In this document: positions 2,670-5,921 of the stretch, piece by piece
How positions within the stretch are numbered: the stretch's first letter is position 1
Layout: every line of letters begins with the position of its first letter
DNA from: a virus
Direction: 5' to 3' (one strand)
DNA length: 10,204 nt
UHGV virus genome: UHGV-0144897
Translations under genes and position numbers: made by a program
Notes under the pieces: generated by a model
Seen by the model: only the letters and a program-made list of their open reading frames with translations
What the model was told of the DNA's origin: nothing
Databases searched by the model: none

Positions 2670-3212
2670 TCACATAACCCCCAGCATCGATGTAACCATT
2701 GTCATCAGCGGCCCCACCTGCTCCGGCATGAGGCGGAACAGCGACGCTATACCCTCGCTTACCTCTTTCAGCTTCTGATGCTCCGGAGCGTCCAGCAGCA
2801 CGGCCTGCTTTGCTTCGGCACACTCTTTCATCGCAGAGGCGATCAGCGACATCGTGTCGTTCTGCGGTGCCAGGCGGTTGCGAAATTCCAGTGGAAGTAC
2901 CGCCATGATTGCGGGCGTCAGCTGGCGCACATTCTCGCGGTACTGCTCTGAGTCGAAGCGGTTATCTAGGAAGCGAAAAAGTTTCTGGCGCGCCCTGCTG
3001 ATGTCTTCCGGGAAGCTGATGGCGGTCCCGCCCTGCTCCCGGTATTCGTTGATGATCAGCGCCGAAACGACGTCCTGATTGTCCAGCGCCGATGACCATG
3101 CACGGACCGCATCGCGGATCTTTTCGTGGCCTGGCGCCGCTTTAGGTTGAGCGCGGTTTATCATTGCTCCCGGGTGTATTCCGGTATTGTGTTGATACGC
3201 AAGTGAATGCAT
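2670..3212 (-). CDS. cII-slot regulatory protein (180 aa), family uncertain (possibly the larger CII-like/YdaT-like type)
   Basis: ORF-track 2670..3212. ATG 3212..3210 with AAGGGA RBS, 30 nt downstream of the Cro-like stop. The position between cro-like and O-like genes matches lambda cII, but the protein is about twice as long and not recognisably lambda CII. Confidence 0.6.
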   Translation of the reverse strand: MHSLAYQHNTGIHPGAMINRAQPKAAPGHEKIRDAVRAWSSALDNQDVVSALIINEYREQGGTAISFPEDISRARQKLFRFLDNRFDSEQYRENVRQLTPAIMAVLPLEFRNRLAPQNDTMSLIASAMKECAEAKQAVLLDAPEHQKLKEVSEGIASLFRLMPEQVGPLMTMVTSMLGVM

Positions 3213-3241: not shown

Positions 3242-3469
3242 TTAAGCGGCTTTTGGTTTACTGATTTCAAGAATCTGGTTTTCGGTAAACTGACCACCAG
3301 ATGCAGCTGCGATTTTGGACGCATAGCCTGTTTCGCCTGTGTAGTCGGTGCGCGGTAGGCAACCGCTATTAATCCACTTGTAAATAGCGCGGGGAGTGCG
3401 CCCGCAAGCCTTCGCCACCACCGGTACACGGATTTGTTTGATGATGTCGCCAAGGTTTTTAGGTTGCAT
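3242..3469 (-). CDS. Cro-like / YdaS-like HTH DNA-binding protein (75 aa)
   Basis: ORF-track 3242..3469. ATG 3469..3467 with GAGGG RBS. HTH-like VVAKACGRTPRAIYKWINSG. Divergent from the cI-like repressor across an operator-rich region. Confidence 0.75.
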   Translation of the reverse strand: MQPKNLGDIIKQIRVPVVAKACGRTPRAIYKWINSGCLPRTDYTGETGYASKIAAASGGQFTENQILEISKPKAA

Positions 3470-3485: not shown

Positions 3486-3559
3486 TTGAACTGTAAGTAC
3501 ATATTATGTCGGAACTGATAGTTCACGCAAGTGATATTATGATTGAACCTATGGTTCAA
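3486..3559. promoter_or_regulatory. OR-like control region: three TGAAC/GTTCA-type operator dyads with divergent PR-like and PRM-like promoters
   Basis: Site A TTGAACTGTAAGTACAT (3486..3502); site B GAACT-GAT-AGTTC (3512..3524); site C TTGAACC-TAT-GGTTCAA (3543..3559). Minus-strand promoter: -35 TTGCGT (3530..3525), 16-bp spacer containing site B, -10 CATAAT (3508..3503). Plus-strand candidate: -35 CTGATA (3515..3520), -10 TATGAT (3538..3543). Site A recurs near-identically in the pL-like region. Confidence 0.45.
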
Positions 3560-4261
3560 GAAGAAAAAGCGCGTACAGAGTTTTCCCAACGGCTAGCGCT
3601 GGCCTGTGATAAAGCTGGTTTACCTGCTCATGGTCGTCAGGCTGAAATTGCAAAGCGAATGAAGCTAACACCAAAAGCAGTAAGCAAGTGGTTCAATGGG
3701 GAGGCTATTCCAAGACGTGGCAAGCTGCAGGAACTGGCGGCTATAATTGGCACATCCTCGTCTTACCTATTAGGCGATAGTGCAGCAGATGGCATATCTG
3801 AAGGGCATATGGCAATGAGGGACGATTCTTTCCGTGTAGACGTTTTTGATATTCAAGCTAGCGCTGGGCAAGGAATTCTTGTGCGAGATGAGTTCATTGA
3901 AACAATCAGATCCATAGAGTATTCAACCGAAGAGGCTCGCGCCGTATTTGGTGGGCGCCCAGCTGACCACATAAAAATGATTGCCGTGAATGGCGATTCT
4001 ATGTCTGGCACGTTCGAGCCGAGAGACCAGATCTTCGTCGACGTGAGCATCGACTGCTTTGACGGTGACGGCATATACATTTTCGTTCTGGACAATGATC
4101 TCTACATAAAGCGCCTTCAAAAGCAGCACAAAAAATTAGCTGTGATTTCAGACAACAAAAAATATGAGACCTGGTATATCGAGGATGGTGATTTTTCATC
4201 TCTTCGGATCTGCGCGAAGGTCTTGGTAAGCCAATCTAGAGCATATAGATTTCATAGCTGA
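3506..4261 (+). CDS. cI-like prophage repressor (N-terminal HTH, C-terminal S24/LexA-type autopeptidase)
   Basis: ORF-track 251 aa. HTH GRQAEIAKRMKLTPKAVSKWFNGEAIP resembles the lambda cI recognition region. S24 motifs AVNGDSMSG (Ser) and LYIKRL (Lys). No SD before any candidate ATG (3506, 3539, 3551); start may be leaderless at 3551, inside dyad C. Confidence 0.9.
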   Translation: MSELIVHASDIMIEPMVQEEKARTEFSQRLALACDKAGLPAHGRQAEIAKRMKLTPKAVSKWFNGEAIPRRGKLQELAAIIGTSSSYLLGDSAADGISEGHMAMRDDSFRVDVFDIQASAGQGILVRDEFIETIRSIEYSTEEARAVFGGRPADHIKMIAVNGDSMSGTFEPRDQIFVDVSIDCFDGDGIYIFVLDNDLYIKRLQKQHKKLAVISDNKKYETWYIEDGDFSSLRICAKVLVSQSRAYRFHS

Positions 4262-4272
4262 GGAAGTTAAGC

Positions 4273-4860
4273 ATGGAAGCAATTAAGGTTACAGATCTTA
4301 GTGATGGAAGCGGTTTGTACGAGCTTGGCGACCACTTCATCACCTGCAAATTAAGCCACGATAAACGTTGGCAACTAGGTGCTTTCAAACGTGATGAAAG
4401 CAAGCTCAGAGATGACACACTGGCGGTTTTGAAGAATGAAAAATTCATGTTTATGGTTAAGCTCGGCGGACAGCTTTCTCCCAAGCCTCAATGCATAGCT
4501 GTTAACGGGCGATTTTTATTTTCTGTCCATACCGGCAAAGACAACAACATGGCTGCAGCCATAGTCATGGATAACACCGGGAAAGAGTTATTCAAGATAG
4601 AAACTTCCACTCACCTCATCAGTTCGGCCATATCTGAATTTGGGCGCTACATCGCCCTATCGTTTGCCGGTAGCAAAAACAAAGATGATTTTTACGCGCA
4701 CCGGCTTGAGGTCATAAACATTGATACCGGAGAGGTGTTGATGTCCGTTATCAAAACAGACTTCCTTCGATACGCTGAGCTTTCAGTTGTTGAGCCAGAC
4801 GGCGGACTTTTCGCAACTTTTAATGGTCGCACAAGGCTTGTTGATGTGACGAACCTCTAA
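4273..4860 (+). CDS. hypothetical protein (195 aa) translationally linked to the repressor; rexAB-slot moron, candidate exclusion/defence gene
   Basis: ORF-track 4273..4860. GAGGAAG RBS 6 nt upstream of the ATG; starts 12 nt after the cI-like TGA. No Walker, HTH or TM segment recognised. First 60 nt are about 45% GC. Confidence 0.8.
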   Translation: MEAIKVTDLSDGSGLYELGDHFITCKLSHDKRWQLGAFKRDESKLRDDTLAVLKNEKFMFMVKLGGQLSPKPQCIAVNGRFLFSVHTGKDNNMAAAIVMDNTGKELFKIETSTHLISSAISEFGRYIALSFAGSKNKDDFYAHRLEVINIDTGEVLMSVIKTDFLRYAELSVVEPDGGLFATFNGRTRLVDVTNL

Positions 4861-4923
4861 TAAATCAAACCAGCCCCAACCCACCTCGCCCAATCAATAA
4901 AAAATTCAAAAATATTTCTCCTT

Positions 4924-5012
4924 AAAGTTCATAAAGTTAATCGTATATGAACTTTCCATTCACAAACAATGTACTTTTGGTACTTTACATGAATGAACTA
5001 TTGGTACATTAT
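4924..5012 (+). promoter_or_regulatory. pL/OL-like region: operator-like dyads and candidate leftward early promoter
   Basis: Inverted repeat AAAGTTCATA (4924..4933) / TATGAACTTT (4946..4955). TGAACT-N4-GTACAT at 4994..5009 matches OR site A (3487..3502). Candidate -35 TTTACA (4984..4989) and -10 CATTAT (5007..5012), 17-bp spacer. GTAC-containing repeats TTGGTAC at 4977 and 5001. Confidence 0.35.
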
Positions 5013-5230
5013 CAATCCATCGAAACGAAACATCGACAGCTGAGCGAAGTTAGCCAGCGGCGGAGTGGAGTTAGATGACCGCTTAGAGCCGCCACTTGAA
5101 TTTCAGCAGGTGACGGGGAGCGCGAAGGGTGAAGCGGACGTGAGAGCGTTGGCGTGACCAGCTGGAACTAAAGGTTTACCAGCAGCTCTTTGCGAGGGGC
5201 TGACGGTAAACAAACAGAGAGGTGGAAATC

Positions 5231-5419
5231 ATGCTTGGGTGTGAAAAGTGCGACCACGGATTCGTGTTCACCAGATGCTGTTCTGGTCTTGCTGAAATGT
5301 GTGGATGCGGCGGAATGCCGGTTCAGGCCACTAATTGCAAGAACTGCAATCCAGAGAATAAAGAGCCGGATGACGCGGAGACAGAATCGCTTCTCCAGTA
5401 TGTCGAATGGGTCGATTGA
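5231..5419 (+). CDS. small Cys-rich protein (62 aa), putative zinc-binding; first gene of early-left operon
   Basis: Part of ORF-track 5222..5419 (GTG start). ATG 5231 has AGAGAGG 8 nt upstream. MLGCEKCDHGFVFTRCCSGLAEMCGCGGMPVQATNCKNCNPENKEPDDAETESLLQYVEWVD has 9 Cys in CxxC/CC/CxC arrangements and an acidic C-terminus. Confidence 0.6.
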   Translation: MLGCEKCDHGFVFTRCCSGLAEMCGCGGMPVQATNCKNCNPENKEPDDAETESLLQYVEWVD

Positions 5420-5431
5420 TCAGCATTTCTC

Positions 5432-5448
5432 CCGCATCAGCGGGTAAC
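5432..5448 (+). repeat. 17-nt intergenic hairpin element CCGCATCAGCGGGTAAC, copy 1
   Basis: Stem CCCGC (5431..5435) / GCGGG (5440..5444), loop ATCA. Ends exactly 16 nt before the ATG at 5465. Identical 17-mer at 5654..5670. Confidence 0.6.
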
Positions 5449-5653: not shown

Positions 5654-5670
5654 CCGCATCAGCGGGTAAC
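5654..5670 (+). repeat. 17-nt intergenic hairpin element CCGCATCAGCGGGTAAC, copy 2
   Basis: Begins right after the TAA stop (5651..5653). Ends exactly 16 nt before the ATG at 5687. Identical to copy 1 at 5432..5448. Confidence 0.6.
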
Positions 5671-5686
5671 GACAGAGGAAAATTTC

Positions 5687-5905
5687 ATGTCTTACATCAC
5701 CGAAAACATCCACCTACTTTCAAACTTCAACGCTGATCCGGCAACTATCGCGAATATGAAATCGCTGGTATTGCCCTGGGCAAAGAAGCGCTTGAGTGAG
5801 TATCAAGAGCTATACGCATTGTGCCCTGAAGCGATATTCAGCGACGAAGTTGAAACGCTAAAAGCTGGCATCGCAGTTTGCGAACAAAGATTACAAGCCG
5901 CCTAA
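5687..5905 (+). CDS. hypothetical protein (72 aa)
   Basis: ORF-track 5687..5905. AGAGGAA RBS. The stop codon lies in the loop of the downstream terminator hairpin. Confidence 0.6.
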   Translation: MSYITENIHLLSNFNADPATIANMKSLVLPWAKKRLSEYQELYALCPEAIFSDEVETLKAGIAVCEQRLQAA

Positions 5906-5921
5906 CCAGCGGCTTTTTTAT
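5895..5921 (+). terminator. rho-independent terminator inside the early-left operon
   Basis: Stem AAGCCGC (5895..5901) / GCGGCTT (5909..5915), 7-nt loop containing the TAA stop of the 72-aa gene, followed by TTTTAT. Confidence 0.55.

Follow-up and report, generated by a model that had tools for sequence, protein, structure and literature searches.

A conserved RNA structure at the put position of the pL leader in an N-less lambdoid prophage is a candidate antiterminator

To our knowledge, the put elements of phage HK022 and its close relatives are the one family from which processive antitermination by RNA alone is known in detail, with one cryo-EM structure. Put acts in cis with RNA polymerase as its sole partner, and rpoC mutations in the beta' zinc-binding domain, such as Y75N, block it. 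HK639 is reportedly a second phage with RNA-mediated antitermination. In Bacillus, the eps-associated RNA (EAR) is a structured leader RNA that is reported (reference 102 in PMC8632103) to promote processive terminator read-through in its own operon.

The put elements of HK022, putL and putR, are cis-acting and are found at the start of the early transcript of this N-less lambdoid phage, with terminators downstream (PMC9378689). They are G-rich and approximately 70-80 nt long. Each is made up of two irregular stem-loops whose internal loops are rich in purines, and a loop engages in tertiary pairing with a distal strand (PMC9378689). Here we analysed a window of 10,204 nucleotides, i.e. the whole stretch of the virus genome UHGV-0144897 under study, and compared its early leader with those of related phages and prophages.

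The pL leader and its surroundings

In a mosaic lambdoid prophage of Enterobacteriaceae, the window corresponds to the immunity and early region. Patches of it match phages HK225, HK639 and phi80 at 92-94%. Its main features are collected in Table 1. The O-like gene contains four 22-nt direct repeats (GTCACTnTTTTGGTGACA) at 2107-2213, which are typical of lambdoid origin iterons. Between cI and pL, in a slot where relatives have rexAB, SIR2 or DUF7946 genes, a 195-aa ORF with no match in Pfam or PHROG may be an uncharacterized, lysogen-expressed defence or moron gene.

Table 1. Coordinates of the features of the window, with the evidence for the elements of the pL operon
Feature	Position	Strand	Evidence or remark
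DnaC-like loader	858-1730	minus	
O-like gene	1715-2611	minus	
cII-like gene	2670-3212	minus	
cro	3242-3469	minus	
cI-like repressor	3506-4261	plus	
195-aa gene	4273-4860	plus	
oL operators and pL promoter	4948-5012	plus	Promoter scan; identity to HK022/HK75 oL1-3/pL
Module A, conserved 5' part of the leader	5019-5067	plus	Near-identity across loci; compensatory changes
Module B, candidate antiterminator RNA cassette	5068-5173	plus	Covariance model R1; cassette swap
Stem-loop I of module B	5080-5122	plus	RNAalifold; MFE fold; compensatory changes
Stem-loop II of module B, irregular helix	5128-5159	plus	MFE fold, z = -3.9; compensatory changes
3' tail CUGGAAC	5162-5168	plus	Complementary to the stem-loop I loop AUUUCAG (5100-5106)
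Module C, conserved hairpin	5174-5211	plus	MFE -20.4 kcal/mol, z = -4.6
Ribosome-binding site GAGAGGTGG (5217-5225) and first early gene	5217-5419	plus	PHROG 28167
Intrinsic terminator of the pL operon	5895-5921	plus	Terminator scans; fold z = -2.3
Leftward early operon: three small genes, terminator, HNH endonuclease, DUF1482 protein, RNase T-type exonuclease		plus	

Three operator-like repeats (4948-4962, 4970-4984 and 4994-5008) accompany a sigma-70-type promoter, TTTACA-17-CATTAT, detected by the promoter scan at 4984-5012 (-35 at 4984-4989, -10 at 5007-5012). This promoter falls within an HK022-like block (4908-5023), whose identity to the oL1-3/pL regions annotated in HK022 and HK75 is approximately 76%. 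Judging from the spacing and by analogy with pL of HK022, transcription would start at about A5019. From there, an untranslated, G-rich leader of 212 nt (5019-5230) runs to the ATG of the first early gene at 5231. The G+C content climbs from 0.36-0.375 (4801-5100) to 0.55 (5001-5200), and the G-C skew is positive (+0.22 to +0.31). Folding of the entire leader is more favourable than that of shuffled versions (z = -2.9, 0 of 200 shuffles).

The ORF list contains just two ORFs from the promoter to 5231, and no credible one within the 212-nt leader: a 43-aa ORF (4947-5078) starts upstream of the pL promoter, and a TTG-initiated ORF (5190-5447) is in a reading frame that differs from that of the 5231 gene. 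The latter codes for a Cys-rich protein of 62 residues that is not N-like and for which Pfam holds no family. At other loci, this first gene is also found downstream of put-type and other cassette types.

Further downstream, the terminator at 5895-5921 consists of a 7-bp G+C-rich stem followed by T6. The third small gene has its stop codon within this terminator, and the genes beyond it include those of the HNH endonuclease and the RNase T-type exonuclease. Searches with PHROG, Pfam and tblastn detected no N-family match among the ORFs of the window. The first-pass annotation of this DNA had described an untranslated GC-rich leader after a pL-like region, with no ORF of plausible size, an internal terminator and no recognizable N gene; all these elements are borne out, and the RNA folding that it proposed as a check gave the favourable z score reported above for the leader.

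An exact 17-nt repeat (CCGCATCAGCGGGTAAC), with copies at 5431-5448 and 5654-5670, forms a small hairpin (CCCGC-AUCA-GCGGG, z = -4.1). One copy immediately precedes the ribosome-binding site of the second pL gene, and the other that of the third. The same element is found in front of phi80 'N' and of genes of loci L007, L008 and L110, and it could be a processing or translation signal.

Exchange of cassettes at the put position

The best match of the leader in the phage collection is the HK639 region annotated as 'putL-like antiterminator RNA' (GenBank HM208537, 34187-34312). The two leaders share the same layout and the same distance to pL, with two near-identical blocks, module A (~5012-5067) and module C (~5174-5225), but their middles are unrelated. 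That of HK639 is clearly homologous to putL of HK022 and shows compensatory changes relative to it (AGACGAACGGCGCGUCU... versus AGUCGAACGGCGCGACA..., the arms of stem II compensating each other). Its put core is located at approximately 3064-3138 of locus L001, and the window has the unrelated module B in its place. That the putL-like RNA of HK639 would be active, and that module C would belong to the active element, are both taken from the GenBank annotation alone.

In the Escherichia coli L6-21 prophage, modules A and C, the ribosome-binding site and the Cys-rich first gene are approximately 98-99% identical to those of the window, and an HK639-type put is found where the window has module B. 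The comparison of the two reveals a clean natural cassette swap, with module B exactly at the position of put. The leader is thus modular, being composed of three exchangeable parts, A, B and C. A leader identical to that of the window from the start of module A to the core of module C is present in IMG/VR locus L139, where the first gene differs, and a near-identical one is found in Trabulsiella guamensis.

The L6-21 prophage (locus L008, 4060-4729) also codes, two genes after its HK639-type put, for a protein identical to phi80 'N' (WP_000564503.1). Put and a phi80-'N'-type protein are found together in 4 of 40 put-type loci. The protein annotated as phi80 'N' is devoid of an arginine-rich N-terminus. 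Either the two coexist as systems, or the phi80 'N' assignment deserves re-examination.

HK639- and phi80-type pL leaders resemble that of the window in that modules A and C flank a variable cassette. We catalogued about 100 loci with modules A and C, and the co-occurrence of cassettes was checked over 238 loci. At least five mutually exclusive cassettes are found between the two modules: the HK639-type put, module B of the window, a cassette of ~170 nt of the Enterobacter phage BHUENT6 type, a phi80-like cassette of ~185 nt, and longer ones of >400 nt. None of module B, put and the three other types co-occur in the 238 loci. The last three types start with a hairpin and a good boxA; this region is the annotated nutL in phi80, which has the 'N' gene downstream. 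In lambda, too, nutL occupies this position in the pL leader. As the slot also houses such a nutL-type boxA region, occupancy of the slot is no proof of an RNA-only mechanism.

Other cassettes of the slot (L004, 2555-2735; L007, 2550-2900; ~60 IMG/VR loci) are conserved and 170-400 nt long. At their start, a hairpin (GGCGGACAGCAAGUCGCC) comes first and then a boxA-like motif (UGCUCAUUAAGAA or UGCUUUUUAACAA). In the sequence examined, the majority of these loci harbour no phi80-N or lambda-N homologue. In loci L110, L062, L131, L158 and L199 (IMG/VR, Scandinavium), the cassette is followed by a three-codon mini-ORF (MKH or MKN, then a stop codon) with a strong ribosome-binding site, and then by ~250 nt of conserved G+C-rich RNA up to module C or the first gene. 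The mini-ORF and this RNA may form a leader-peptide-type regulatory element.

Module A contains a 5'-terminal hairpin (UCGA 5020-5023 with UCGA 5033-5036) and a second one at 5039-5058. HK639, phi80, Enterobacter phage BHUENT6 and ~100 IMG/VR loci have near-identical versions of it, regardless of the cassette that follows. Its divergent versions, aligned and read by eye, retain both hairpins by compensatory changes (CAUCGA/UCGAUG versus CAUCGC/GCGAUG in the first, GCUG../..CAGC versus GCGG../..CCGC in the second). The hairpin of module C combines two helices (5174-5180/5205-5211 and 5183-5190/5195-5202) closed by a UGCG loop, and its 5' strand contains a boxA-like GCUCUUUG (5185-5192). The core of module C is identical in at least 115 IMG/VR contigs, in which it precedes >10 different first genes, and it lies within the stretch annotated as putL-like RNA in the HK639 record. 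Module A probably serves as a 5' stabilizing and folding platform, and module C as a hairpin ahead of the ribosome-binding site.

A conserved RNA structure distinct from put

Module B is a conserved RNA structure with covariation. Its covariance model, R1, finds one match per locus, with a score of 119.6 bits for the window. The underlying alignment is gap-free and comprises 21 distinct sequences, of the window's type, of an E. coli type, of a third type with a longer loop in stem-loop II, and from Scandinavium hiltneri. Stem-loop I consists of three helices (5080-5084/5118-5122, 5089-5091/5114-5116 and 5093-5098/5107-5112) topped by the apical loop AAUUUCAG (5099-5106). Its single-sequence MFE fold is identical to the comparative structure, in which 98.9-100% of the cells are paired. 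Compensatory changes affect three column pairs of the alignment (24-47, 26-45 and 27-44). In stem-loop II, the pairings GGU/ACC, A-U, GC/GC and GACG/CGUU are broken by purine-purine internal loops. Folded alone, it yields the same MFE structure, and compensatory changes are found at columns 67-86 (G-C, G.U, A-U) and 71-82 (A-U, G-C). RNAalifold independently predicts the same two stem-loops, including the upper two helices of stem-loop I, except that the 3' strand of the basal helix of the latter is set two columns further.

Over the whole alignment, 97.4% of the cells are paired in the two-stem-loop structure, versus 31-46% in slid-partner controls. Five base pairs show two-sided changes across the 21 sequences, which represent three or four clades only, 83-100% identical, and several further, one-sided changes to G.U preserve pairing. 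The covariation score was reached by none of 500 shuffles. Loops and internal loops do not vary, unlike the stems, which covary; in stem-loop II, for its part, the loop differs among types (GAGA in the window, CGUGAA or AAUGGAGA elsewhere). The thermodynamic signal of module B taken as a whole is weak (z = -0.26). Searches for more divergent relatives in genome contigs (two species), in metagenomes (two contigs) and by further IMG/VR scans yielded no new clades.

Just beyond stem-loop II, the 3' tail is complementary to the loop of stem-loop I. Each of the 21 distinct sequences retains an uninterrupted run of six to seven pairs, in which a single position changes from U-A to U.G. Both the loop (AUUUCAG) and the tail (CUGRAAY) are invariant. 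No two-sided covariation was found for this pairing among the 21 sequences, and with invariant partners covariation is uninformative there. The complementarity is suggestive of a possible pseudoknot.

The end of module A (AAGUGG, 5063-5068) can also pair with the 5' strand of stem-loop I (CCACUU, 5092-5097). In the E. coli variant of module B, other sequences (GUUGCG with CGCAGC) form the equivalent pair. From this complementarity, an alternative helix or a co-transcriptional folding intermediate may exist. A coding function of module B was considered and rejected: the mini-ORF ATG-ACC-GCT-TAG loses its ATG in the variant with a longer stem-loop II loop, from other Enterobacteriaceae.

Module B shares several properties with the put elements of HK022. 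Both are positioned in cis at the start of the early transcript of N-less lambdoid phages with terminators downstream, and module B is likewise a G-rich element of ~70-80 nt, with two irregular stem-loops, purine-rich internal loops and a candidate tertiary pairing. Nevertheless, no sequence or profile similarity links the two. The 5' strand of put pairs with the top of stem I, whereas in module B the loop of stem-loop I would pair with the 3' tail; the stems of module B are separated by a 5-nt spacer; and module B is present in one copy per genome rather than two. Its two adjacent stem-loops span 80 nt, where about 65-75 nt are typical of put, and their architecture is analogous to that of put but not superimposable on it.

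Module B is not detectably a member of the put family, as each covariance model misses the other element. The put model, R2, scores 103 bits in HK639, 100 in L6-21, 87 for HK75 putL and 47 for putR, but its best score in the window is 6.6 bits (E = 3.8), and model R1 matches no put. A fuzzy search of the window for put motifs (stem I GAACGGC..GUCGG, stem II apex GGCG.G.UCA.GGAWGA..CAAU) was also negative. The GGGAGCGCG common to module B and stem II of HK022 belongs to non-equivalent strands, in a stretch that is variable within the put family. A second, putR-like copy of module B is absent from the window, from 26 kb of phage Perceval and from 45 other loci, with one match each; the HK639 record likewise annotates only a putL-like element.

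The first-pass annotation had suggested a nut- or put-like RNA in this leader. The direction was right, given the match to HK639 and the true put of sibling prophages at this place, but the window has no put by sequence or profile, nor does it have a nut site accompanied by an N gene. Of the pairings it had listed, the complementary segments do exist (GGCGG 5059-5063 with CCGCC 5089-5093, AGTGG 5064-5068 with CCACT 5092-5096), but they are mutually exclusive and not supported by the comparative analysis: GGCGG is GGCGA in most relatives, and CCGCC is part of stem-loop I. Covariation is found in the module at 5068-5173, in helices other than those. The palindrome CCAGCTGG is present at 5158-5165, one nucleotide away from the position initially given. 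The boxA-like GCTCTTTG was correctly placed at 5185-5192, but its 7-mer GCTCTTT occurs at chance frequency (two occurrences for 1.78 expected in the window) and the octamer is buried in the stable helix of module C. Lastly, the proposed Rfam scan found no match in the leader at the gathering threshold or at E <= 10; as Rfam 15 also misses HK75 putL and putR, it holds no put family, and this negative result says nothing about put.

A ~85% identical variant of module B directly follows pL in phages Perceval, Turner, 4A7, Lambda_4C10 and others. It is devoid of modules A and C, though a related 5' hairpin is present there. In 16 phage records, this variant is unannotated or overlapped by the kil CDS. 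The 'Kil' CDS of Perceval (L003, 1514-1933) starts within module B, and the kil start in a RefSeq O157 prophage lies downstream, past module B; the Perceval start is probably wrong, an annotation artefact. A full-text search of the literature with the core sequences of the module returned unrelated primers only.

Module B is also found, at 80-90% identity, in ~2,200 of 5,426 complete E. coli genomes (~40%), including O157:H7. It is a single-copy element, always located ~50-60 nt from the start of pL, and it precedes many different first genes, which points to an operon-wide rather than a gene-specific role. In Perceval-type phages, pL leads directly into kil-gam-bet-exo after the leader, and the expert annotation of Perceval includes Q but not N. 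A search of 131 module-B loci for homologues of phi80 N or lambda N found none. Intrinsic terminators were identified within the module-B pL operons of the window (5895-5921), of an O157 prophage (L009, 5929-5947) and of Perceval, upstream of dksA-xis-int. A strict census detected a perfect-stem terminator within 4 kb downstream in only 9 of 69 loci, which is uninformative.

A candidate antiterminator and its alternatives

Elsewhere the slot of module B holds put, a proven type of antiterminator RNA, or a nut-type boxA region; the phages with module B are N-less, terminators are found downstream and the element is independent of the genes that follow. On these grounds, we propose module B as a new structural class of put-like antiterminator RNA that acts in cis, a proposal drawn from its position, its context and the natural swap with put that we hold to be about evenly balanced. 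In the pL leader of the N-less prophage (5019-5230), module B would fold co-transcriptionally into its two irregular stem-loops, and the possible loop-to-tail pseudoknot might lock this fold. It would then act in cis like put of HK022 and HK639, by remaining bound to the RNA polymerase that made it. The bound polymerase would become resistant to pausing and termination, so that pL transcription would continue past the 5895-5921 terminator, and past any Rho-dependent sites, as far as the recombination genes, all this independently of a phage protein. A structured leader RNA with a read-through role would recall EAR, to which the leader of the window is unrelated in sequence, host and operon.

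Four other explanations were considered, none of which accounts for both the precise swap with put and the covariation. The leader might be a structural or housekeeping 5' UTR whose stable G-rich, C-poor hairpins protect the long untranslated RNA from RNases and Rho loading, or that tunes translation of the first gene by RNase III-type processing, with no processive modification of the polymerase. The strong positive G-C skew, opposite to that of a rut site, and the chain of hairpins, one of them 5'-terminal and another just upstream of the ribosome-binding site, fit this idea, and these hairpins recall the RNase III hairpin of the lambda N leader. We nevertheless deem it unlikely, as it explains neither the precise exchange with put, nor the invariant loops and internal loops alongside covarying stems, nor the independence from the downstream gene. 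We find it somewhat more doubtful still that module B is a nut-like loading site in need of a protein partner rather than an RNA-only antiterminator. The partner would be an unrecognized N-like protein of the phage or a Nus factor of the host, and the boxA-like sequence of module C might take part. Other cassettes of the slot do begin with a hairpin and a good boxA (UGCUUUUUAACAA), with N downstream of nutL in phi80, module C contains the boxA-like GCUCUUUG, and N proteins are so diverse that a negative search is not final. However, no gene is conserved beside module B, the first genes vary from locus to locus, and nothing but the leader lies between pL and kil-gam-bet-exo in Perceval-type phages. 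The boxA-like 7-mer is base-paired and no more frequent than by chance, module C does not accompany the E. coli variant of module B, and the loop of stem-loop II is not conserved, unlike that of boxB.

Alternatively, the 5' end of the pL transcript could release module B as a small RNA or decoy that acts in trans, for instance on targets of the host or of competing phages. A conserved, structured and abundant prophage RNA with an invariant single-stranded loop might suit such a role. This is very unlikely, as its source promoter is repressed, neither a terminator nor an evident processing site follows module B, and both its position and the swap with put favour a role in cis. The possibility that module B is conserved as mosaic 'linker' DNA for phage recombination, with no RNA function, takes its appeal from modules A and C, which behave as recombination joints among many cassettes and first genes. 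Linker DNA would not covary by base pairs, however, and the E. coli variant of module B occurs without modules A and C, so that we give this explanation hardly any credence.

Module B could represent a second, non-homologous structural class of RNA that binds RNA polymerase and renders it termination-resistant, mediating early antitermination with no phage protein in N-less, Perceval-type lambdoid prophages; we put this forward tentatively, as slightly the less probable outcome. Nature has exchanged put and module B between leaders that are otherwise identical, which offers an experimental design ready for use. If a second, unrelated RNA does the work of put, it would reveal how RNA polymerase can be reprogrammed by different folds and supply a new, compact part for terminator-proof expression. 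Far from being a curiosity of HK022, RNA-only antitermination would then be common, as these prophages are present in ~40% of complete E. coli genomes, O157:H7 included, and it would account for the expression of recombination, excision and integration genes after induction in N-less lambdoid prophages of E. coli.
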